A DNA stretch of 64,000 nt from Candidatus Latescibacterota bacterium (GCA_965219995.1 CBDCOX010000002.1:3712001-3776000); one strand, 5' to 3'; shown: positions 51,961 through 64,000, numbered from the stretch's first letter. Translations and numbers: made by a program. The notes: generated by a model from the letters alone, not told the origin.

Positions 51961-52719
51961 TCACTCCACGTCGAGAATATAACGCGCCAACGGCGAGAGC
52001 CGTCGGGCGGTATCGGGCCGCAGGTACTCGCGCTGGTTGGTCTGTTGTGCGTGCTCCCGGGCGATAAAGGCGCAATGCAGGGTGCGGCGAGGGGCGTCGG
52101 TGCGATTGCGATATGAGCCGTGCCAGAGGCTGCCGTTGAATACTGCGACCGAGCCGGCGCGCCCGGTCAGTTGCACCTGATCCGGGTGATCGGCCATGGA
52201 GTCGGCCACGTGGTCGGAGATCCTGTCGGGCTTGCGGTGGCTGGCGGGGACGCAGCGGGTCGCTCCGTTGGCTCGGGTGAAGTCGTCCAGCATCCACATG
52301 GAGTTGACGACGTGGTAAGGTCCGCCGGGCGCGGTGGGCTGTCCCCAGTCCGTGTGCAGTCCCTGTAACCCGCTGCCGGGCAGGGGATCGTGACCGTTGA
52401 GCGAATGCAGCTTGAACGGCCGCTGCAGGACATGAAATACCGCCGTCAACAAAGTTGGCTGCAGGTAGACATCGTCGAAGACCGTCCCCTTGTTCACCAG
52501 ATCGGCGAGGCGGCGCACGCCCTCCATCTGGGCCACCTCGACGCCGGCCTTGTCGCCCTCGCGGTCAAAGATCGCGTCGAATGCGTGGCGCAACCCGGCC
52601 AGCCAGTCGGGTGCGATGATGTCTTCCAGAATGACGAAGCCATCGGCGTCCAGCGTGCCGCTTTGCGCGGGCGTCAACGCCCGGGGAACGAATCCCCGTT
52701 TCAACAGTTCGTAATCCAT
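51961..52719 (-). CDS. Phytanoyl-CoA dioxygenase (PhyH) family protein
   Basis: DADGF, LHTDW, LDDFTRANGATRCVPASH, LWHG, RR. Confidence 0.92.
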   Translation of the reverse strand: MDYELLKRGFVPRALTPAQSGTLDADGFVILEDIIAPDWLAGLRHAFDAIFDREGDKAGVEVAQMEGVRRLADLVNKGTVFDDVYLQPTLLTAVFHVLQRPFKLHSLNGHDPLPGSGLQGLHTDWGQPTAPGGPYHVVNSMWMLDDFTRANGATRCVPASHRKPDRISDHVADSMADHPDQVQLTGRAGSVAVFNGSLWHGSYRNRTDAPRRTLHCAFIAREHAQQTNQREYLRPDTARRLSPLARYILDVE

Positions 52720-53608: not shown

Positions 53609-53759
53609 GGTCCGGAAAGCTGGACCTCTCCCCCCGGCTCCTCAAAAGGAGCGGTCAGCTATCAGTTTACGGCGGTTAGCTAAAAGCGGAAGGCAAGAGC
53701 GAAAACCAAATTCAACGTCCACATCTCCCCAAATTCCCTGCCTACGGCGTGTTCCTTAA

Positions 53760-54155
53760 AAGCGGGGAGACGGAAGACGGGAGAGGGTAGAGGACCACAT
53801 CCCGCCCCAACACCGGGTGAAACGGAAGACGGGAGAGGGTAGAGATTACCTGCCTCGTGAGGTCTCGTATCGTGCCGAAGGCAAAAAAGTACAAAATAGC
53901 GGGCAAGGGCTTCTTCTCCCGTCTCACCTCTACCGTCTTACCGCCCTTTGGTGACCTCTCCCTCCGGCCCCTTAGACCTCTCTCCCCGGCCCTCTCTCCT
54001 AAAGGAAAGAGGGAGACAGGCCGGACGTCGACTCGCCGGTTTTCTATAGAGACTCTCATTGAAAGGAAATCGCCGTCCCGGAAAGTCTGCAAGTCCGGTA
54101 CATGCACCCGTTACCGTTCCCCCTTCCTTTAGGAAGGGGGCCAGGGGGTAGGTCC
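53760..54155. repeat. Repeat cluster: heptamer arms, reverse type-2 element and CCCTCTC/GAGGG-type palindromes
   Basis: GAGACGG/GAGGGTA arms at 53765-53840, type-2 core in reverse at 53823-53945, and CCCCTTCCT-TT-AGGAAGGGG at about 54120-54139. Confidence 0.7.
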
Positions 54156-54210
54156 GGGAGACGGATGGGAAGTTGAGCTGGGGACCGGGCAAATTCAAAG
54201 GATAGTTAGA

Positions 54211-54510: not shown

Positions 54511-54596
54511 CATGGGTCTGCCAGGAAATCAACCCAAACTCCCTTGTCGGCGGCTTGATCGTTCCACCTATGATTCAATCCATTCAGGAGACGCTC

Positions 54597-55367
54597 ATGC
54601 TTTCGCAAGCGCAGTTGGCGCAATATGACCGGGACGGGTACGTGATGGTGTCGGGGCTGATTCCGGAAGAGACAATCGCAGGCGCGGAGGCGGCGATGTG
54701 GTCTGTCCTCGGCATGGACCGCGACGATCCTGCTTCGTGGTCTCCTCTACCGGGCGATGCAGATGGCGTAACGACGGTGGCCAGCCAGGGGGTGGTTGAA
54801 CATTTCGGGCTCAAGGACCCTGAGCTGCTGGCGTGTTGTACTCCTGCGTTTTACGAAGTGCAGAGCCAGCTTGCCCGCGAAAATGAAGATGCGTTTCACT
54901 GCCGGAGACCACAGCCCGAGGCGGTCTGGACGCGCAGCGTATTTCCGGTTTCAGGAAGCTGGAGTCACCACAGCGGGCATGCTGATGGCGTACATCGACC
55001 GTTCAGCATCTTTCCCGGATCATTCCGCGTCTCGTCGCTGACGTATCTCGATTCCGGTGTCGCGCAGGGTGGCGGAACGGCAGTCTGGCCGGGTTCGCAT
55101 CGTACGCTCAGAGATGGGGCGGTGCGGGATCCCGACAGGTTTCGCATGCTGCCGGATTTACAGAACCCAACGCAAAAGTTCGATCTGAGCGCGCCCATTG
55201 AGTTGACACCGTCCCGGGGCGACGTTCTGTTCTTCCACTATCTGCTGGTCCACGCCGGATCGCTCAATACCGGCAACAAACCGCGTTTCGCAATCCGATG
55301 GATGTGTACCTGCGACGCCTGCCGTATCTGGGAAAAGCACGGCAGGTGGAATATCTGGATGCCGTGA
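54597..55367 (+). CDS. Phytanoyl-CoA dioxygenase (PhyH) family protein
   Basis: MLSQAQLAQYDRDGY, GHADG (HxD), GGTAVWPGSH, GDVLFFHYLLVHAG, PR; RBS AGGAG. Confidence 0.88.
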   Translation: MLSQAQLAQYDRDGYVMVSGLIPEETIAGAEAAMWSVLGMDRDDPASWSPLPGDADGVTTVASQGVVEHFGLKDPELLACCTPAFYEVQSQLARENEDAFHCRRPQPEAVWTRSVFPVSGSWSHHSGHADGVHRPFSIFPGSFRVSSLTYLDSGVAQGGGTAVWPGSHRTLRDGAVRDPDRFRMLPDLQNPTQKFDLSAPIELTPSRGDVLFFHYLLVHAGSLNTGNKPRFAIRWMCTCDACRIWEKHGRWNIWMP

Positions 55368-55770
55368 AGTAGATTGGCAACGCGCTGTGGCGATCCGGGG
55401 CATTTCGACAAGCTCAGAGTCCACATTTTCGCTTTCGTTCAGTAACCCTATTCCTCGGTCGATCTATCCGACACATTTGCACGAATTGAAAATGGACTGA
55501 TCGCATATTTCCGTAGGGCTCACCCTGCATTTCTACTATCAATACATCACAATAGACACAACCCGGTCAATGATACGTCGACCTTGCTCTGAGAAATAGC
55601 GCTCTGCAATTGCACAGAGCGCTTTTCGAAAACCGACTCATTAAAGGGCGGGAAAGCCCGTTTGGGTCTTTGGTTACCCGTCGTGTAGTCCAGCGAATTG
55701 GGCTTCAGGTTATACGCTACCAGCTGGAACCTCAGCCCGAAAGTTCTTGTACTTTTCCAATACGCCGGCA

Positions 55771-56796
55771 TTACGTCGTGCGCCGTCCAAGTAGGATCTG
55801 CTCGACTTGATCCTCGTCAAGGAAATCCAACGCATTACGTAAACCAGAATCGTTCTGTCCCGGTGGTTGTGCCGGTAATAGTTCAAACCACGGTTCTTTA
55901 TAATCCTCCCTAACTTGCAATAATGGAGACCTGAGCAAGGGCAATGCCGATTGAGGACCAGATAACATATGGGAGGGAGCTATATCATAAGCAAAGTGCA
56001 GCATAGGAATCTTGTTTGCACCATTGTACAAAACAGTTGGCCTTGCTGACACACATACATCCGAGTTACCTGCGGCTATAGCAATCATGTAACCCAATGT
56101 GCCGTGAACCAGTCTTGCCGCCTCTTCGGCTTGAGATTCCGCACTATCCAACAAAAAGCTGATCGTTTCGCTGGTCTCGGCATCCGCCACTTCCTTTGAA
56201 GCAGTCAAGAATTGCCGCATTTGTTTCCTATCACGAGGCCCAAAGAGCTTGGACTCAACCGTGAGCATTAGAAGCCAAGGCTGCCATGCATCTTGACGAT
56301 CAGTAGCGAATAGACGCCTTATCGCATTAGCTCTTTTTTTGACTACGCGACCGCCGCGATCATATGGCAGGAATTTTCCAAAATAGTCAAGGTATAAGAC
56401 GTCAAAATCCCATATGTAACCAAATCCCTGACGGTACGTAGTTGAGACAAATTCCGATTTTGGTTTTCCACCCTTATTCTTTAAGATCACCGTGTCGACA
56501 TCTCCCAAATGGGCTCGATATCGAATAGTACCAAACTGTGTACTTAATATATGGTTCACCTTCTGAAATCGTTCGGCACAGAATTCTACAGCAGCAACGT
56601 AATCGCAAAGGCCCCCCCAGCAGCGTAAATCCAGGGCTTCCTCACCAGGCAAGCCAAAATACCTGATTCTTCCCTTTTTTCTTCGAGCCACCGCCCTGAC
56701 CAACGGAAGGTCATACTTTTCTCTAACCAAATTTTTCTCTTCGCTTGAGTAATAGTTCATATTCGACTGACCGCGCCCTCGCGCCATTGCATCCAC
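55771..56796 (-). CDS. Putative SAM-dependent methyltransferase-fold protein
   Basis: IRYFGLPGEEALD (motif I-like), YVAAVE, AHLGDV and FDVLYLDYFG (motif IV-like). Starts 3 bp after the ATPase stop; alternative start at 56760. Confidence 0.6.
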   Translation of the reverse strand: MDAMARGRGQSNMNYYSSEEKNLVREKYDLPLVRAVARRKKGRIRYFGLPGEEALDLRCWGGLCDYVAAVEFCAERFQKVNHILSTQFGTIRYRAHLGDVDTVILKNKGGKPKSEFVSTTYRQGFGYIWDFDVLYLDYFGKFLPYDRGGRVVKKRANAIRRLFATDRQDAWQPWLLMLTVESKLFGPRDRKQMRQFLTASKEVADAETSETISFLLDSAESQAEEAARLVHGTLGYMIAIAAGNSDVCVSARPTVLYNGANKIPMLHFAYDIAPSHMLSGPQSALPLLRSPLLQVREDYKEPWFELLPAQPPGQNDSGLRNALDFLDEDQVEQILLGRRTT

Positions 56797-56799
56797 TAA

Positions 56800-58662
56800 C
56801 TAACTTCCTATTTCCTCGGCAATTGCTTCAACTACTGCTCTTAGAACCGTTTCATATCTCTCTCCCCTCCCGCCCAGCCCAACAACTAGCCCTCGGTCAA
56901 TTGCGCTTATAAGACATTCCTGTTGTTTGCCTTCTAATGTAATTCCTTGCTGTGCCAACGCCTCTCCTAGTGACACTGGTGCCAAGGGTGACCAACCGAG
57001 AAGGGCTCTCAACTGTCTGCGAGAGGACTCTAATTCGGGACCAAGGTCGACGCCTGTTGCCTTGAGTTCGTCAAGGACTCCTATTGCTCTCGTAACTGAC
57101 CTAGTATTGATGGAAGATACCAAAGCCTCAGCCGCTTTCTTATATCGAACATCACCTGTCTCGTCCGCTATCCCGAGTGCAGCGCTCAATGCGTTTTTTA
57201 ATAACATCTCCTGGGGCGGAGGTTGGGTAGCTTTGCGTCGTTTTCGTTCTGCACTCCTTTCAGCTGCCCTAGCGACACCTCCCAATTGGCTTATTGCCGA
57301 TTGAAGTCGCTCGACTACATTGTCCAAAAGACCCTGTTGTACATCATCAAATTGGACTCGCGGGCGCCCGCGTGGTTTTCGCTTATGGGTCGCAATCTGT
57401 TGATGCACGTTCTCGAGATTTTTGCGATAGTTCTCGCTGTTCCTATAGACCTCGAAGCTGTTTGAGTTTGGTGCAACCTCTAGTTTGCGTAATTGTTCGA
57501 TGGTGTCATCGATTCCCTCAAGTAGCCGATCTGCCCTCATCATCGCCTGCATAGCTCGAGCCTTGTGACTAAGAGGATAAAAGAAATCTTCAGCTTGCTT
57601 TGCGAAAAGTTGACGGGCTGGGCTGGATTCTAGATCATTCCGCGCAGCATTAGGATAGATCTGATCTGTTGCCAATATGTGAACTTCCCCTGTATAGTGA
57701 TGGTATAGAGTCCCCCCTCCAACGGCGGGCCAAAGCCCTTTGAGCGCAAGCCTATCCCCTAAAGTGAACCCCTTTACCTTCAATAGGAAGCCGCTTACTT
57801 CTGAACCCTCATTCATGGGTAGCTGTCTTCCATTGGTAGACAGTGCGTACCACACGAAAGCCAATGCTGTGCCGTCTGGTGCTTTTATCCAATCAGCTTC
57901 GGGGCTGTATACTCCAGACGCGACTGGAGGAAAAACCTCGACTTCACTTTCGTCAGCGATTCGAAGAGTAATCCGAACTGGATTTAGCTTAACGTACTCT
58001 TCAAGCCATCCATTGACCTTTTCGCCAAAGCCATCTTCTGGGAAAGCCACAGGAATCGTATTTAGAAGATATTCGTTGACCTCTGCTGCATTGTTGAGTT
58101 GCGCTCGGTATTCGTCGCCCAATCCATCTAACTCCACCACCGTAAAGTGCTCGTCCACATCGCCATAGTAAGGTTCAACGAACAACTCACTATATTGGTA
58201 CATTAGATCTGGAAGTCCAACACCTTGACGGGAATCAGAAGCTTTGTCGGCTTCAAGCAAGCGGCGCATTTCGCCAAATTGAAAGGTCCAGCCAACAAGG
58301 TTTTCCATCCCGCCTTGCTTGCTAGTGATCGTCATCTCTTCACATATGCCGAACCCCGAATAGATGCCAATGCCGCGATATCCGACCATTTCTCTAGGGC
58401 TTTTTTCAGACATTCCAAATCGCCGAGCGACCCGGACCCCCTCTTCATTCATGCCATGACCATCATCTCTGATCACAGCGTGGGAGCCATCGACTGTAAT
58501 GAAAATGTGCTCAGCTTCCGCATCCACTCCGTTCTGGACGTACTCCCTTAGTGCATCTTTCGCATCGGAGTACAAGCCTCGTGAAAGGATGTCCAATAGC
58601 TCCCCGCCTACCTCCCAACTCTCTAGCTGAACTCGCCGCGTGTGGCGTTCACTCTGATTCAT
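56800..58662 (-). CDS. GHKL (MORC/Hsp90-like) ATPase with a helical/coiled-coil C-terminus
   Basis: LREYVQNGVDA (N-box), IRDDGHGM (G1), VGYRGIGIYSG (G2), FTVVEL (G3), transducer motif GEVH...PNAARNDLE. Confidence 0.85.
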   Translation of the reverse strand: MNQSERHTRRVQLESWEVGGELLDILSRGLYSDAKDALREYVQNGVDAEAEHIFITVDGSHAVIRDDGHGMNEEGVRVARRFGMSEKSPREMVGYRGIGIYSGFGICEEMTITSKQGGMENLVGWTFQFGEMRRLLEADKASDSRQGVGLPDLMYQYSELFVEPYYGDVDEHFTVVELDGLGDEYRAQLNNAAEVNEYLLNTIPVAFPEDGFGEKVNGWLEEYVKLNPVRITLRIADESEVEVFPPVASGVYSPEADWIKAPDGTALAFVWYALSTNGRQLPMNEGSEVSGFLLKVKGFTLGDRLALKGLWPAVGGGTLYHHYTGEVHILATDQIYPNAARNDLESSPARQLFAKQAEDFFYPLSHKARAMQAMMRADRLLEGIDDTIEQLRKLEVAPNSNSFEVYRNSENYRKNLENVHQQIATHKRKPRGRPRVQFDDVQQGLLDNVVERLQSAISQLGGVARAAERSAERKRRKATQPPPQEMLLKNALSAALGIADETGDVRYKKAAEALVSSINTRSVTRAIGVLDELKATGVDLGPELESSRRQLRALLGWSPLAPVSLGEALAQQGITLEGKQQECLISAIDRGLVVGLGGRGERYETVLRAVVEAIAEEIGS

Positions 58663-58751
58663 ATGGGCAGGCCTCTGTAGCAATTAGAATTCAGGAACAT
58701 CGGATGAAGTTTTCTGACCAACTTTTGAATTGTCGAATACAGAGTCGCAGA

Positions 58752-58781
58752 ATTATAGAAATCGTAATGCAAAATGGCGAA
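58752..58781 (-). promoter_or_regulatory. Possible internal promoter before the second ATPase
   Basis: Perfect TATAAT on the minus strand at 58752-58757 with a weak -35 (TTCGCC, 18-nt spacer), in the only long gap of the cassette. Confidence 0.3.
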
Positions 58782-59001
58782 TTCAAAGATTGAGACATCA
58801 AAGCCGCGGTTCAGTTCATCTCGGAACTGCCGTCACGACAGAAAAATCCAAGAATATACCGTTTCGTCTACCAATTAAGCTCACTGAGCATTTCCCGTTC
58901 AGGCGAAGGCAGAATCTATCGCAAAGAGAAGAAACCATTGTTTACTTCGATTGGACGATAAAGCCCAGCAGACCGAGCTCTATCCGCCACAGGTCGAACG
59001 A

Positions 59002-60585
59002 TCAGCGACTTGAGGCGGCCACTGTGTTCGGTTGCATCGCGTTGTACACTTCTCTGAACGCCCGCGCAACACGCCCACTTCCACCAAGATTGAAGCTGAC
59101 GTTGCGAACTTTCGCATTCAATCGCCACATCAGCCCCTCAATAGAGTTGTAGTCGTGAACCGAAAGTGCCGTGTACTTGCGGCGATTGTAGTCGAGGAAC
59201 GGAAGCAACTTGCCGTTTAGATGGTGCAGATCGAAGCCTTTGTCTTCGATGTATGGTCGGTATTGCTCGAACAGTGGTGTACTTGGCACCGGTGTGAACA
59301 GCATCGGAATCACGGAGCCGACACGGCTAGAGGCAAATGTGATTGTGTCGTACACAGCTTGCAGGTCTTCGTCTGGTAGGCCGAAGAGGATAAAGCAGTT
59401 GATGTCTTGGCAACGCGACTTGAATCCGGCCTTCTCAGCATTTTTCAACGCGTAGAAAAACTTGCCCATGTTTGTGTGAGTCCGTTGCCACGATTTGGCC
59501 ATGTTGGCGTTGACAGTTTCGAGCGGTAAATACAACCTCCTAAAGCCAGCGTCACGCATCAGTTGGACGGTGTCTTCGTGCAGCAGGCGGACTTCGATAC
59601 CCTCCGGTGCGTGCAGTTTGATCCCTTTCAAATCGCGATCGTTGCTAATGAGCCGGCAAAGCTGCTTGAAATTCTCTCTACCGAGCAGCAGGTTGTCTTC
59701 GTAAAAACAGAATTCGCGAATTCCTTGTTCAAACCGCCGTTTGATCTCGTCGTACGCGACTTCGGATTCCCGAACCCAGATCTTTCGGCCTTCGTTCAAT
59801 ACGTTGGCCGAACAGTAAGAACATTTGAAGGGGCAGCCTCGACTCGTCGTCATGATGAGGTAATCGGGCAATCTCTCACCTTCTTCTCCTTCTTCTTCGT
59901 CGCCCGCGCCGTCTTTTTCGTACAACTCAATGGCAAGTGGGAGTGGATTCGCATCGGGAATCGTCGCCGATACTACGATGTCACGTCTCTTCTGCTCGGC
60001 ATTGAGGGGATCAAGCTCGCGACCCATTAAATGCACGGGGTTATTCAATCCAAGGTTCTGCATCGCATGTTCGGGAATAAGTGTGGGATAGATTCCACCA
60101 ACACGGAAAACGGCCCTTGGAAACACCTGCCGACAGACTTCAATGACGTCACGGGTACTTTCCCACCAGTACGTCATGATCGACGATATCCAGATTTCAT
60201 CTGGCTCTGGAAAGGCTACTTCGTCGAATAGCGATTCACGTGCATACCTAGCTCGCGCCTTGATTGCTTCGAGCCGTTTTCGCAGTTCCTCGAGCGACAT
60301 GCCGAAAACGTATTCGATCTTTTCGTCGGGCTGCGATTCGTAATTGGTCCATTTATCCGGGGTGAAGGGTTCGTCTGCGGAACAGAGTTTTCGTACGCAG
60401 CGCTTTCGCTTTGGCACGGTTCGCCGCTTGTTGGCCTCCATGCAGTCAATCAGCTTCAGCATGTAGCCCTTGCTCTGAAGCCACGACGCAACGCGCAACA
60501 GCCCATAGGGCATACTCCAGTTTGCCCAATACTGTACGTCGTAGACAGGCGGGCTAATCAATAACGCTGAGGGGGAACGCTTCAA
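59002..60585 (-). CDS. B12-binding domain radical SAM protein (class B-like), intact
   Basis: LLISPPVYD...PYGLLRVASWL, PDEIWISSIMTYWW, VGGIYPTL, TSRGCPFKCSYC, FYEDNL, LPLET, FILFGLPDE, FTPVPSTPL. TTG start at 60585 with RBS GGGAGG inside the end of the upstream gene. Confidence 0.9.
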   Translation of the reverse strand: MKRSPSALLISPPVYDVQYWANWSMPYGLLRVASWLQSKGYMLKLIDCMEANKRRTVPKRKRCVRKLCSADEPFTPDKWTNYESQPDEKIEYVFGMSLEELRKRLEAIKARARYARESLFDEVAFPEPDEIWISSIMTYWWESTRDVIEVCRQVFPRAVFRVGGIYPTLIPEHAMQNLGLNNPVHLMGRELDPLNAEQKRRDIVVSATIPDANPLPLAIELYEKDGAGDEEEGEEGERLPDYLIMTTSRGCPFKCSYCSANVLNEGRKIWVRESEVAYDEIKRRFEQGIREFCFYEDNLLLGRENFKQLCRLISNDRDLKGIKLHAPEGIEVRLLHEDTVQLMRDAGFRRLYLPLETVNANMAKSWQRTHTNMGKFFYALKNAEKAGFKSRCQDINCFILFGLPDEDLQAVYDTITFASSRVGSVIPMLFTPVPSTPLFEQYRPYIEDKGFDLHHLNGKLLPFLDYNRRKYTALSVHDYNSIEGLMWRLNAKVRNVSFNLGGSGRVARAFREVYNAMQPNTVAASSR

Positions 60586-61909
60586 GATCCCAGACCTCCC
60601 TACGTAAACTGTTTCGCAGCAACTCGGCACCCATACTTCCATTCAAAAAATCGAATGACCGGCTGCGGACTTTCTCGTTGAGGAACGCCGCCATCCTGTA
60701 AAGGTCATGGTACTCGTATCGGGTGATTCCGTTATGCTCGGCGAACGGAAATCTGTGAGGGGACAGATCAGCGTACGAAAGATCGTCAAGATACTCCTTA
60801 TGTTGTTCGTACAGTTCTGTTCCCGGCGTTGCGGTGTATGGCTTGAGGATGACACTTCCAAACGTCCTGAGAACGGTGAAACAACGATGGACGATCCCTT
60901 CCAGGGTTTCGCCAGGGCGCCCAATCCATACGAATCCGCAAGTCCTGTTTCCGTCCGCAACATCAATCCCCGCTTCCAGTAGGTGGGCTCTACACTGCTT
61001 GTATACGACCTCGTCTAGATCCAATTCCTCCTCGGACTGCTCAAAGTGAAGCTCCGCGAACGTACGATCTGCGAACATCCTCGCTAAGTCTGGTGTGACC
61101 CGTTCGGGATGCAGCCCTGACACCGCATGAAACTGCAGATGTGGGTGGAGTCCCTTCGTACTCTCGACGATCTCTCGAAGTAGCTTGCCCTTGTCGCGAC
61201 AAATGTCGTCCTCGGCATCAAACACGGCAACGCGAAATATTCCAAGATCGATTGCTTCCCTAATCGTGGGAATGGCCGTAGCTGGATTGAGAGTAATCGA
61301 AACGAACGACGGTTTTTCGCCTTTGTAGAGCTTCAGTGATGATCCATTGTCGGCATGCCTAAGTGGCGTCCTGACGAACAAGTCGGCATCACAAAAGTCT
61401 ACTGCGTTGTCCAGCATAAATCGTGGGTAATTGCCCAGTACCGCCAGTTTCGCGTCTGGAAGCCAAAGGCGTAGCTTCGTGCATAATTGGTGAATGCTGG
61501 CGAACCAATAGCTGCACAGCGAAGTAATCCACACTTGAGTTGGCTCGTTTCGCTCGCCTTCAGCACGTCGCTCGACGACCCAATCCTTGAGTGCGTCGAA
61601 TGGTTTTCCGAATCTCCACATTGGATATTTGTAAGCAAATTGACCATTGCCGACTTGCTTGTATCTCTCTCGCCCGTTCAACGCTTTTTTTTGTACGCGG
61701 CCTTTGTTGTTCGGCACCATGAAGTCAAACAGCTCAACTCCACATCCCTTGCTGTTGTTGAGATACGCCCCAATTCCGAGTAGGTCCAATGGTTGATTCC
61801 ACTGCAGCCAGCTATAGCGTGTCTCGAACACTGGCGGGTTTACCAGCAGTATCCTGTCGCGCTCTTCGACTTGGTTCAGTAGTATTTGTCCTGTGACAGA
61901 ATTAGTCAT
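60554..61909 (-). CDS. Degenerate B12-binding/radical-SAM-like paralog lacking CxxxCxxC
   Basis: ILLVNPPVFE...PLDLLGIGAYL, PTQVWITSLCSYWF, VLGNYP, FVWIGRPGE, YTATPGTEL. Colinear with the downstream radical SAM but without the cluster-binding motif. Confidence 0.8.
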   Translation of the reverse strand: MTNSVTGQILLNQVEERDRILLVNPPVFETRYSWLQWNQPLDLLGIGAYLNNSKGCGVELFDFMVPNNKGRVQKKALNGRERYKQVGNGQFAYKYPMWRFGKPFDALKDWVVERRAEGERNEPTQVWITSLCSYWFASIHQLCTKLRLWLPDAKLAVLGNYPRFMLDNAVDFCDADLFVRTPLRHADNGSSLKLYKGEKPSFVSITLNPATAIPTIREAIDLGIFRVAVFDAEDDICRDKGKLLREIVESTKGLHPHLQFHAVSGLHPERVTPDLARMFADRTFAELHFEQSEEELDLDEVVYKQCRAHLLEAGIDVADGNRTCGFVWIGRPGETLEGIVHRCFTVLRTFGSVILKPYTATPGTELYEQHKEYLDDLSYADLSPHRFPFAEHNGITRYEYHDLYRMAAFLNEKVRSRSFDFLNGSMGAELLRNSLRREVWDLEAFPLSVID

Positions 61910-63893
61910 TGGATTGCATCGTGAAAGACAATAGTGTCACGGCCATTTCCATCATCTGTTCGGCGTCGCCTTCCGCCGCTGTGCGTGCCAATACCAATGC
62001 CAGAGCGGTGCGTAGGAATCCCCGCTCGTCCATCTGGGACTCTGCAGCATGGCCCCAATTAACGAGAATTCTGTCCCGCTTGAAGTCCATTTCAGCGATG
62101 GGTTGGCTCGCCGTGCCCTTCTTGTGTACGACGTCGAACCGCCGCTTGAACAACATGATACCGTTGTCCCATTCAGGTCGCGATACGTCGATTGTCACCT
62201 GTTTTTTTTCATAGTCTATTGTTGCTGCTTCCGACTGACGACTTGCCTGATTTACGGCCATACCAGCCACTTTGTTGGGAACGCCAAATCCTGCCGGCTT
62301 CGCAGATGCTAACCCGTTCGGGCGCGGGCTGTTCGACTTGAGCATATCTCGTATCGCGTTGGCTTGTCGTCCGCCTTCGGTCATAAGGTGAGTTATCCCC
62401 GCCGACACATCATCCATCGCACGCCGGATGTACGCCGCGCGACTCAACGTGCTATTGATTGACGACCTCGCTTGGCTTCGTTTCAAGACGGCGTCGATGG
62501 TCCTGCCGAGATATCCGCCAACCCTTTCACCCTCTCCCCGGAAATACTTACGCAAGGCGAGAAAATCACCACTCTCCTCGTAAAAGCCCTCGCGACCTGG
62601 ATTGATCGCATCTACCGCGTCCAAGCCGCTCAGCACGTTTATCTCACCCGTGATCTGGCTCAATGCGGCCTTATGGGCTCCAGTAAGAAGGAATTCGGCG
62701 CCGAGAAAGGTCGGATCGCCGATTGCGACACCTTGGACACGTATAGAAACGCCTCGATACTCGGCCGGGAATACAACGCTTTCGTAGCCGAGAAGGAATC
62801 CTTTCGCGATAAGACCACCCTCGTTTATGTCTACTGCCGTGATCATATCCTTGTATAGCGTCGCTGCGTCCGGTTCGAACGGATAGAGTGGACGAGCCAG
62901 CTCTCTCTCCGAATTGCCGTGCCGGAGTGTCACTTTTTCCAGTGTGGGTGGCGATGCATCCTCCAAGAGGGCTTCAAGATGTCCAGCTTGATCTGGCGCC
63001 GTCGTGTACCCGATTGGTGTACATCGTGACAAATGCCACTCGACCTGTTCAAAGCCGCTGCGACTGGCAACATTTCGAACGAAGCCCTTCCGGCGCCCGG
63101 CTCGGAGTTCGCGCTTTACAAACGGCTTGAGTCCGTCTATTGCGACCGTTGTCCCTCCCGTCGATTCCCGCTCCAGCTCTTGAATTTCGATCAACGCGAA
63201 ATCGGACAGTTTTTCAAGGTCGGCAGAATCCGCGAGCTTGAGCAAGCGATCAAAGTCCAGAGTCGCTCGAAAACCCAACCTAGTGCAGTCGATGTCAAAT
63301 TCAATGTCAACCTCACCTAAATCCTTCTTGAAGTCGAGACGACCAGTCTTCGCGTTCAACTCGTAGTCGGTTGCATCAACCTTCAGCCGTTTTCCAGATT
63401 GGATCACCTTGAAACTGCACAACCTATTGAGTAACTGCGGGTCAATGGGTACGCCCAGAGCGCTGACGAGATCTATGGCCGGGTATGCCTTTACGATCGA
63501 ATGTGTCCGTTTGAACTGACGAGGACTGCTTGAAGTGATGATCATCCGGTGGCAGTAGCGTGCGAGCGCGAGGAATCCTATCCCTTTGTTCCCGATGCGG
63601 CTTCGATTTTTCTTTGGCGTCCTTTCCCCTGACCATTTACGACTGCTGCCGCCGATTCGAGTGAAGTCGCATCTGAACTCAAACGGACTCATCCCGTTGC
63701 CGTCATCCGATATCGTGGCAGACGTGAAGTCGTCAGCAAACTCGATCGAAACTTCTGTCGCGTCGGCATCGTAGGCGTTACTGACGAGTTCCTTGAACGC
63801 TTTGACGAACGGCTTATAGACGCCGGACAGCTCTCGAAGAATCGAAGGATCTACGCCGCCGACGCTCATTCCTCGGTTCGATGTCTTTATCAT
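61902..63893 (-). CDS. GHKL (MORC-like) ATPase
   Basis: FKELVSNAYDADA, ISDDGNGM, IGNKGIGFLA, GTTVAI, transducer motif GEINV...INPGREGF; the stop overlaps the next start (ATGACTAA). Confidence 0.88.
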   Translation of the reverse strand: MIKTSNRGMSVGGVDPSILRELSGVYKPFVKAFKELVSNAYDADATEVSIEFADDFTSATISDDGNGMSPFEFRCDFTRIGGSSRKWSGERTPKKNRSRIGNKGIGFLALARYCHRMIITSSSPRQFKRTHSIVKAYPAIDLVSALGVPIDPQLLNRLCSFKVIQSGKRLKVDATDYELNAKTGRLDFKKDLGEVDIEFDIDCTRLGFRATLDFDRLLKLADSADLEKLSDFALIEIQELERESTGGTTVAIDGLKPFVKRELRAGRRKGFVRNVASRSGFEQVEWHLSRCTPIGYTTAPDQAGHLEALLEDASPPTLEKVTLRHGNSERELARPLYPFEPDAATLYKDMITAVDINEGGLIAKGFLLGYESVVFPAEYRGVSIRVQGVAIGDPTFLGAEFLLTGAHKAALSQITGEINVLSGLDAVDAINPGREGFYEESGDFLALRKYFRGEGERVGGYLGRTIDAVLKRSQARSSINSTLSRAAYIRRAMDDVSAGITHLMTEGGRQANAIRDMLKSNSPRPNGLASAKPAGFGVPNKVAGMAVNQASRQSEAATIDYEKKQVTIDVSRPEWDNGIMLFKRRFDVVHKKGTASQPIAEMDFKRDRILVNWGHAAESQMDERGFLRTALALVLARTAAEGDAEQMMEMAVTLLSFTMQSND

Positions 63894-64000
63894 TCTACAT
63901 TACTCGCTTCTCAACCGTGGGGGGAGCATTGGAAGAAAAAACACCGTTTCTTTTTCTCAGGCAAGCGGAATCTGGCTGGGATATTGTCCCAGGTTCGCGC

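Follow-up and report, generated by a model that had tools for sequence, protein, structure and literature searches.

A horizontally mobile radical SAM protein pair linked to GHKL ATPases in Candidatus Latescibacterota: a candidate nucleic-acid-directed conflict system

Introduction

Dnd, Dpd and Ssp systems are multi-gene, mobile and patchily distributed and hold both modification and ATPase modules, while BREX and MADS combine a methyltransferase-fold protein with several ATPases and have a minimal set that lacks a canonical nuclease. Prokaryotic MORC, paraMORC and other GHL ATPases are said to have been placed in restriction-modification-like loci by Iyer and colleagues in 2008. Radical S-adenosylmethionine (SAM) enzymes of known defence systems act on free nucleotides, as viperin and OxsB do. 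OxsB, the oxetanocin enzyme, is a cobalamin-dependent class B radical SAM enzyme, and we know of no class B radical SAM enzyme that acts on DNA. Here we describe a cassette of five genes (g1 to g5) in a 64,000-nt stretch of DNA of a Candidatus Latescibacterota bacterium (GCA_965219995.1, CBDCOX010000002.1:3712001-3776000; hereafter the window), in which two GHKL ATPases accompany a pair of radical SAM-related proteins and a methyltransferase-fold protein. The cassette occupies a small genomic island, its relatives are spread over many phyla, and its composition matches no described system, so that it is probably new.

Results

Five co-oriented genes form the cassette

A preliminary description of the window, made from its sequence, had proposed five co-oriented genes in the order GHKL ATPase, degenerate radical SAM protein of the B12-binding type, intact radical SAM protein, second GHKL ATPase and methyltransferase-fold protein. 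This arrangement was confirmed with all genes on the minus strand (Table 1), and the coordinates of the open reading frames (ORFs) bear out the 8-bp overlap of g1 and g2 and the 3-bp spacing of g4 and g5. The overlap of about 32 bp given for g2 and g3 holds if g3 starts at the TTG, whereas it becomes 89 bp if the first ATG is used; alignment of homologues leaves this choice unsettled. All five frames are open and the catalytic residues of g1, g3, g4 and g5 are intact, which speaks for function. As the genome (5.44 Mb) contains only six PF13589 matches, the presence of two of them within the cassette is beyond chance.

Between g3 and g4 lies a spacer of 320-340 bp that the preliminary description did not mention. 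It holds the last ~38 codons of a reversed M5-type gene (the family of g5), which was recognized by tblastn against the convergent M5 gene of the related locus L004 (50% identity over 38 aa, E 4.6e-8) and against a 94-aa fragment at the equivalent place in L003 (E 1.6e-11). This relic, together with the fragment at the same place in L003, therefore indicates that modules were exchanged by recombination. A promoter-like site upstream of g4 (58780-58752) was dismissed, with 6 promoter-like sites compared to 7.3 in shuffled sequences, and terminator-like sites (8 compared to 8.3) were likewise not used as evidence.

Table 1. Features of the cassette and its island, in window coordinates
Feature	Position	Strand	Basis
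g1 (GH1), GHL-type ATPase, 663 aa	61902..63893	-	PF13589 HATPase_c_3, E 1.9e-15
g2 (R0), Cys-less paralog of g3, 451 aa	60554..61909	-	BLASTP against g3, E 5e-17
g3 (R+), intact radical SAM protein with putative N-terminal B12-binding-type domain, 546 aa (ATG 60642) or 527 aa (TTG 60585)	59002..60642	-	PF04055, E 1.2e-16
M5-type gene relic, C-terminal end	58888..59001	+	Inside the g3-g4 spacer, opposite orientation; tblastn
g4 (GH4), second GHKL ATPase, 620 aa (ATG 58662) or 627 aa (to 58683)	56800..58662/58683	-	PF13589, E 1.7e-15
g5 (M5), Trm1-like class I methyltransferase-fold protein, 341 aa	55771..56796	-	Fold matches
Low-GC genomic island	55412..64000, reaching ~64254 outside the window (by 254 bp, according to L002)	.	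Empty sites in G002 and G009; GC profile

An intact and a cysteine-less radical SAM protein are the invariant core

Relatives of g3 were collected from GTDB (one genome per species, phyla according to record titles) and from metagenomes, and ORFs in their neighbourhoods were called with a simple caller of our own and clustered by BLASTP. The GTDB species genomes contained at least 24 loci in at least nine phyla, and the metagenome scan returned 170 relatives, of which 80 were kept. Proteins of the g3 family (R+) and the g2 family (R0) are distinguished by the presence or lack of CxxxCxxC, whereas the upstream position of R0 is independent of this motif.

g3 contains the sequence CPFKCSYC and thus the CxxxCxxC motif of the radical SAM superfamily in a PF04055 barrel. 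C251, C255 and C258 (527-aa numbering) are invariant in 15/15 aligned sequences, and 97 R+ proteins of at least 400 aa carry the motif. The best NCBIfam matches were class B radical SAM families (PhpK, HpnJ, BchE, ladderane), all far below their cut-offs; since scores of at most 50 bits stand against cut-offs of 250-775, g3 represents a separate family. Neighbours in the ESM Atlas are automatically named 'B12-binding domain-containing radical SAM', and a sequence search of the PDB gave a weak match to AprD4. R+ proteins of Bacillota (L012, L013, L024) have an insertion of ~110-120 residues right after the APEGIE motif (alignment columns 410-525) that other clades do not have.

g2 aligns with g3 over its full length (21% identity) and lacks the cysteine triad at the aligned place. 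CxxxCxxC was found in 0/57 aligned members of the R0 family, and g2 had no match in Pfam, NCBIfam or PADLOC. g2 is a homologue of g3 without the features of a catalytic radical SAM enzyme, and is predicted to serve as a non-catalytic partner subunit. The R0 family is rare, as only 283 representative clusters at E<=0.001 (31 at <=1e-30) were obtained among 1.84 billion proteins.

In 68 of the 73 loci with at least 1.5 kb of upstream sequence, a Cys-less R0 gene lies directly upstream of the intact R+ gene in the same orientation. For four of the others (L006, L007, L033, L046) our caller had labelled an opposite-strand ORF at the R0 position, and in two of these, L006 and L007, tblastn recovered g2-like sequence; the remaining locus, L022, does have R0, but with two short ORFs between it and R+. 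No tandem of two R+ genes was seen among the loci listed. Structure prediction of the R0/R+ complex scored 0.77 (best of three controls 0.00), the runs agreeing in at least 81% of contacts with a partner pLDDT (predicted local distance difference test) of at least 83. Of 157 solved complexes, 116 reached the mark applied to such predictions, as did 2 of 215 mismatched pairs; the comparison is rough because our own alignments were used. The model supports a heterodimer of R0 and R+, the interface of which would be built from conserved C-terminal segments (R+ 471-519, R0 395-442). Pairwise identities of R+ correlate with those of R0 (rho 0.84, 64 loci) and GH1, the family of g1 (0.90, 26 loci); co-inheritance alone would also produce such correlations.

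The GHKL ATPases and the methyltransferase-fold protein

Both g1 and g4 belong to the GHKL/GHL ATPases, as they have the Bergerat fold together with its N-box (ExxxNxxD), G1 box (DxGxG) and G2 box. In 24 sequences of the g1 family E35, N39, D42, D63, G65, G67, G101, K103, G104 and G106 are invariant. In g4 residues E40, N44, D47, D66, G68 and G70 are near-invariant, and G94 and G99 invariant. Residues 12-477 of g1 form the GHKL fold and an S5-like transducer, followed by a conserved C-terminal domain (~480-660) with no clear fold. The two ATPases share ~30% identity over 135 aa of the N-terminal ATPase fold only (BLASTP E 3e-9), and the C-terminal half of g4 is uncharacterised. The preliminary description had called both MORC-type; MORC-specific models of PADLOC and NCBIfam matched neither. 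Apart from PF13589, library matches of g1 and g4 were sub-threshold and confined to the N-termini (BbrUII/HgiDII, sacsin, MutL, MzaB, TmtA). The AF2 (AlphaFold2) model of g1 (pLDDT 83.2) yielded tied fold matches to GRP94 (17.2), SMCHD1 (16.5), MORC3 (16.2) and MutL (16.1). The PDB sequence search gave a weak match to PMS1 for g1 and none for g4, for which ESM Atlas neighbours bear generic names only.

The Rossmann-like seven-strand fold of g5 and its conserved residues (Y46, G48, P50, D56, D137 and G140 are invariant) mark it as a predicted class I SAM-dependent methyltransferase, the assignment of motifs I and IV being our own reading. A fold search in BFVD returned generic methyltransferases. 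g5 had no match in the local Pfam, and its profile had none in the PDB sequence search; homologues are tagged PF28273 in the protein collection. An assignment as TcmP was rejected: g5 and four homologues had no TIGR04474 match at E 0.01, and matched only NF047698 (PP_RS20740 family) with 17-36 bits compared to a cut-off of 200.

Related loci are built from two shuffled modules

For comparison of gene content, R+ sequences were collapsed at 90% identity (105 loci to 80 clusters) and 24 representatives with at least 4.4 kb of upstream and 3 kb of downstream sequence were retained. A GHKL gene of any family was present in 22 of these 24 de-duplicated loci (exceptions L023 and L088). At six PF13589 matches per 5.44 Mb, a GHKL gene would lie within 20 kb by chance in ~2% of places; this is our own estimate, and as the loci are related no formal test is claimed. 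GH1 was found in 13 of the 24 loci, GH4 (the family of g4) in 15, a further GHKL family termed GHc6 in 6, M5 in 11 and a family termed c7 in 4. Genes absent from the window were also common: DUF5131 in 13/24, a HerA-type ATPase in 9/24 and the small c8s protein in 6/24. The R0/R+ pair is the invariant core, nearly always in linkage with a GHL ATPase, and the methyltransferase-fold protein, DUF5131 (related to spore photoproduct lyase), the DndH-like translocase and DndB-like proteins are frequent companions.

Conserved five-gene synteny, which the preliminary description had proposed to look for, was borne out at the level of modules and not of the whole: among 104 other loci only two (L003, L049) have the exact order, while GH1-R0-R+ and GH4-M5 are conserved and shuffled. 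GH4 is followed by M5 in 36/47 loci, GHc6 by c7 in 13/19, and GH1 and R0 overlap by exactly 8 bp in 15/27. All five families occur together in L003, L004, L005, L038, L045, L049 and L066, many other loci being too short to tell, and one further relative (X6) has all five genes on a single contig of 22,990 nt. The modules are usually joined by the genes that the window lacks, encoding DUF5131, the HerA/DndH-like ATPase and a small KOW/RHH-like protein. Type I loci (Planctomycetota, Latescibacterota, Binatia, Bacillota) have the order DUF5131< GH1> R0> R+>, after which comes an operon in convergent orientation, c8s-HerA-(GH4-M5 or GHc6-c7). Type II loci (Chloroflexota and many soil contigs) read R0> R+> c8s> GH4> M5> DUF5131> or GH4> M5> R0> R+>. 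The window corresponds to type I without the convergent operon, with a co-oriented GH4-M5 in its place. Correlation of pairwise identities is weaker for the second module (R+ with GH4 rho 0.48, R+ with M5 0.60, GH4 with M5 0.59), and for R+ with DUF5131 it is 0.46. GHc6 matches GH4 over the ATPase N-terminus only (probability 68%). Homology of c7 to M5 was not accepted (hhalign probability 4.8%, E 0.0084); segments resembling motifs I and IV align, which is a lead only.

Partner genes of related loci

The HerA-type ATPase of related loci has an N-terminal helix-turn-helix (HTH) domain and matches the C-terminal ATPase of DndH (1.6e-47) and mad8 (1.4e-21). The DUF5131 proteins match PDC-M41B (1.7e-124), PDC-M30B (6.3e-119), TIGR04471 (4.7e-25) and also phrog_2045. 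In the available part of the RadicalSAM.org publication (PMC9477430), DUF5131 is placed in Megacluster-5-2 and spore photoproduct lyase in Megacluster-5-3. In L019 (4680-5741) a spore-photoproduct-lyase-like radical SAM gene (PF20903, 3e-6) lies directly upstream of GH4-M5-R0-R+, in the usual position of DUF5131. Bacillota loci begin with DGQHR genes of the DndB/DpdB-like type. A type IIG restriction enzyme-methyltransferase (E 0), a mad8-like protein and an unassigned protein recur in 8-13 loci, and further neighbours include AbiEi, HNH and PD-(D/E)XK proteins and several helicases. These neighbourhoods support the co-occurrence in other genomes and the defence-island setting that had been anticipated.

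The c8s family consists of conserved proteins of ~138 aa encoded ahead of the GH4 or HerA gene (for example L009:13514-13933 and L058:7577-8014) and absent from the window. They have a GDKVR..G...ARG N-terminus, a TNYSLAARRAW...GRPKG segment and a ribbon-helix-helix (RHH)-like tail, and gave no family match. We read the sequence as a putative KOW-like N-terminus joined to an RHH-like C-terminus, and c8s is probably a DNA-binding regulator of the system.

Two DUF5131 genes occur elsewhere in the genome of the window (G000:C2:4469716-4470417 and G000:C2:5285323-5286024, with 321 and 317 bits); within 10 kb of either, no relatives of GHKL, M5, HerA or the radical SAM pair were found.

The cassette occupies an island at a variable chromosomal site

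The sequences left of ~55411 and right of ~64254 are contiguous in two congeners that lack the genes (separated by 71 bp in G002 and 13 bp in G009), which identifies an 8.84-kb insertion whose cargo is exactly g1-g5 and no other gene. Its guanine-plus-cytosine (GC) content is 0.47-0.55 over 55.5-64 kb, compared to 0.585-0.67 left of 53.5 kb and 0.60-0.65 beyond ~64.5 kb, so that the block is AT-richer than its flanks, as had been noted before. The preliminary description had further proposed horizontal acquisition, which is supported by the empty sites and by the sporadic presence of g3 in 4 of 61 related genomes including that of the window (3/14 among the further congeners, 0/46 beyond the genus). 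Its suggestion that a nuclease might follow past base 64000 is unsupported, because the island ends ~254 bp beyond the window and is followed by core genes, in sequence shared with congeners lacking the island. Its ends showed no tRNA gene, integrase or target-site duplication.

A third congener (G008) carries at the same site a different cargo of 4.9 kb with ThiF/E1, Multi_ubiq and HTH genes. This locus (L113, G008:C1:3118100-3123500) encodes a 534-aa ThiF/E1 protein matching PADLOC E1-E2 (6e-18), a 106-aa Multi_ubiq protein (PF14452), a Cro/C1-type HTH protein and a 507-aa protein without assignment, and looks like a ubiquitin-like conjugation conflict cassette. This position is a hotspot at which conflict-type cassettes vary.

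Just left of the island, at ~53620-54170, the window contains members of a repeat family with units of ~120-330 bp; in each of five congeneric genomes this stretch has dozens of matches, at 70-97% identity, and the family is probably a dispersed repeat of the miniature inverted-repeat transposable element (MITE) or repetitive extragenic palindromic (REP) type. The repeat-rich stretch is bracketed by two PhyH-family dioxygenase genes (PF05721) on opposite strands (51961-52719 and 54555-55367), which belong to the conserved core and not to the island.

Spread and a weak hint of transcription

Phyla are mixed in a tree of R+ (22 rows): one row from Victivallis groups as the sister of one from Anaerolineae (100/99), and Latescibacterota and Binatota fall inside a clade of Planctomycetota (100/99). 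The tree omits L010, L011 and L020 (R+ ORFs below 420 aa), and binning errors could add to the mixing. None of 85 pattern matches in IMG/VR contigs was confirmed as a g3 relative, and none was found in PLSDB plasmids or INPHARED phages. Near-identical DNA was present in 14 runs of 7 studies, including sponge metagenomes in which its presence was confirmed. RNA-library contigs, 90-98% alike, lie on g1, g2 and g3; none lay on g4 or g5, and as contigs cannot show absence this was not used as evidence.

Searches for described systems

PADLOC 2.0.0, run on the five proteins, named no system, in line with the earlier statement that the combination was not recognised as a named one, and Pfam-A, NCBIfam and PHROGs likewise named none for the cassette. 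In the full-text literature covered, which excluded supplements (bioRxiv, PMC10853773) and subscription journals, no description of a B12-type radical SAM pair with GHKL ATPases was found. Ophion, in the available part of its preprint (10.1101/2025.09.30.679545), consists of a radical SAM protein, a PHP protein and a phosphoribosyltransferase (PRTase) and is unlike the cassette. The term 'radical SAM' does not occur in the main text of PMC13092281 and appears once, in the reference list, in the available part of the Tiamat preprint (10.64898/2026.09.30.754977). A report on HerA/FtsK capture systems (PMC10853773) has no GHKL or MORC terms and names radical SAM only with regard to DndC.

Discussion

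The company of partner genes in related loci, the insertion hotspot and the pattern of horizontal gene transfer all point to a nucleic-acid-directed conflict system. With confidence that stands about midway, we regard the five genes as a reduced form of such a system, modular and mobile by horizontal transfer, most likely directed against phages or plasmids and probably acting on DNA. More tentative, and each short of an even chance, are the parts of this reading that name DNA as the substrate, C-methylation as the chemistry, use of cobalamin and clamping by the ATPases.

In the proposed mechanism, the first module (g1-g2-g3) would be translationally coupled and co-evolving, with the GHL ATPase clamping or remodelling the substrate. 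R0 would serve as a scaffold or substrate-binding subunit beside the catalytic B12-type R+, and together they would act on DNA or a nucleotide by radical chemistry, C-methylation being the most likely reaction. The second module (g4-g5) may contribute another GHL ATPase and a Trm1-like SAM methyltransferase-fold protein that writes or reads a second methyl mark. In a more daring version, which we consider rather unlikely, a cobalamin-dependent R0/R+ heterodimer loaded or gated by the GHL ATPase would act directly on DNA, either placing a new carbon-centred mark, for example a C-methyl group, as a self label or using radical chemistry as an effector that replaces a nuclease. If true, DNA would for the first time be the substrate of a class B radical SAM enzyme, and modification-based immunity would gain a new branch that horizontal gene transfer has carried over at least nine phyla.

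Several points weigh against the proposed conflict system. The defence role and the modification are read from genomic context, and many of the loci come from metagenome bins and are related, hence not independent. The island contains no nuclease or other recognised effector, and PADLOC gave only N-terminal matches at the GHKL level (REase_II, TmtA, MzaB) and one of g3 to PDC-M51A at 13.6 bits. Because DUF5131, HerA and the small protein of most full loci are missing, the window copy may be incomplete or inactive, a minimal or decayed form. The second module is tied only loosely to the first (R+ with GH4 rho 0.48), and a relative from a sponge metagenome (X5) has g1-g3 followed by different sequence from 59066. 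Regarding cobalamin, the PF02310 match of g3 (20.3 bits) is below the cut-off of 32.1 bits, with the N-terminal pattern conserved, and a search of the genome, 98.6% complete, found CbiB (PF03186, C2:3286821) but no CobS (PF02654). The ATPases may have a role in protein maturation, as the modelled fold of g1 fits the chaperone GRP94 as well as MORC and MutL. Transcription of the cassette has a weak hint in the RNA-library contigs, which may derive from contaminating DNA.

A first alternative, clearly unlikely in our judgement, is that two unrelated systems stand side by side in an integration hotspot, GH1-R0-R+ being one and GH4-M5 (usually with DUF5131) an independent TcmP/DUF5131-like unit, so that their adjacency has no functional meaning. 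The spacer with its reversed M5 relic, the divergence of X5, the weaker co-variation of R+ with GH4 and M5 and the variable orientation and order of the modules would all fit this explanation. However, GH4-M5 or the analogous pair GHc6-c7 adjoins R0-R+ in many loci, with at least four different arrangements and in R+ clades that are far apart (38-93% identity). Type II loci without GH1 have GH4-M5 directly after R+ (L058, L063, L068, L089 and others), and the near-constant linkage of a GHKL gene among the de-duplicated loci argues in the same direction.

Improbable to the same degree is a radical SAM heterodimer whose product is a modified nucleoside or nucleotide, serving as antiviral chain terminator or as signal as with viperin (3'-deoxy-3',4'-didehydro-CTP, ddhCTP) or OxsB, and leaves DNA unmarked. 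The free-nucleotide substrates of radical SAM enzymes in known defence systems favour it, as does the absence of a nuclease from the island. A radical SAM protein is also part of Ophion in the available part of the preprint (10.1101/2025.09.30.679545). Against a nucleotide product, the recurrent partners are DNA-centred (DndB/DpdB, DndH-like HerA with HTH, type IIG restriction-modification, GHL clamps), and no nucleotide kinase, phosphohydrolase or PRTase was among 35 annotated neighbour proteins.

Slightly less probable again is a selfish or regulatory epigenetic module, that is an addiction cassette or a DNA mark regulating island or host genes rather than immunity. Orphan modification systems exist, no effector is recognisable and the cassette is mobile yet without an integrase; defence-type components nevertheless recur in the same operons, and in the congener G008 a different conflict-type cassette occupies this place in the chromosome. 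A cluster for biosynthesis of a natural product, a ribosomally synthesized and post-translationally modified peptide or a lipid, in which the GHKL proteins would act as chaperones or kinase-like regulators, could draw on the natural-product and lipid enzymes among the far sub-threshold NCBIfam matches of g3 and on GRP94 as top fold match of g1, but is very improbable given an 8.84-kb island without precursor peptide, transporter, tailoring enzyme or regulator, DNA-directed neighbours in other genomes and a patchy distribution driven by horizontal transfer.

Should the cassette prove to be a nucleic-acid-directed conflict system, it would embody a new enzymatic principle of bacterial self/non-self discrimination, B12-dependent radical chemistry that an obligate live/dead pair of paralogs performs, coupled to ATPases of the MORC/Hsp90-like type. 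Three orphan families (the R0/R+ pair, PF28273 and DUF5131) would for the first time be placed in a functional context, and radical SAM enzymology would gain a possible new substrate class and nucleic-acid biology a possible new DNA mark. As Aneurinibacillus terranovensis DSM 18919 and Bacillus pinisoli are, according to record titles, cultured carriers, the system is directly testable.

Compared to known systems, the cassette shares with Dnd, Dpd and Ssp the mobile, patchy multi-gene organization of modification and ATPase modules. In related loci the likeness extends to DndB/DpdB-like DGQHR proteins directly upstream of GH1-R0-R+ (L012, L013, L024) and to the HerA/FtsK ATPase matching the DndH C-terminus. 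In contrast, the cassette has no DndA/C/D/E, SspA-D, DpdA or TGT-like genes, radical SAM proteins of the B12 type and a Trm1-like methyltransferase fold make up its enzymes, and the Dnd-like partners are absent from the island of the window. As in BREX and MADS, a methyltransferase-fold protein occurs with several ATPases and without a canonical nuclease, and related loci have a mad8-like ATPase; however, the five proteins gave no PglX, PglZ, BrxC or mad1-7 matches, M5 is by sequence not an N6-adenine DNA methyltransferase, and the radical SAM pair has no counterpart.

With prokaryotic MORC, paraMORC and GHL ATPases, the cassette has in common the GHKL fold with S5 transducer, as modelled for g1, and a Bergerat ATP site that is intact. 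Neighbouring methylases, helicases and restriction-modification genes are a further likeness to such ATPases in the available part of the Tiamat preprint (10.64898/2026.09.30.754977), whereas the partner here is a radical SAM heterodimer as predicted. In related loci M5 directly precedes DUF5131 as in the TcmP/DUF5131 ('phage Gp37/Gp68') module of PDC-M30/PDC-M41, where a methyltransferase fold stands beside a radical SAM-related protein, but M5 is unmatched to TIGR04474 and the island of the window lacks DUF5131. g5 differs from Trm1, the tRNA m2,2G26 methyltransferase, in having 10% sequence identity and in its linkage, within a mobile island, to a GHKL gene and not to tRNA genes. g3 resembles class B radical SAM enzymes (PhpK, HpnJ, BchE, AprD4) in its best sequence matches and in the order of a putative N-terminal B12-binding-type domain and a CxxxCxxC barrel, and differs from them in its obligate pairing with a Cys-less paralog and its linkage to GHL ATPases. 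Taken together, these comparisons suggest a system of the same broad kind as Dnd, Dpd, BREX and MADS, but one that relies on radical SAM chemistry and is probably new.

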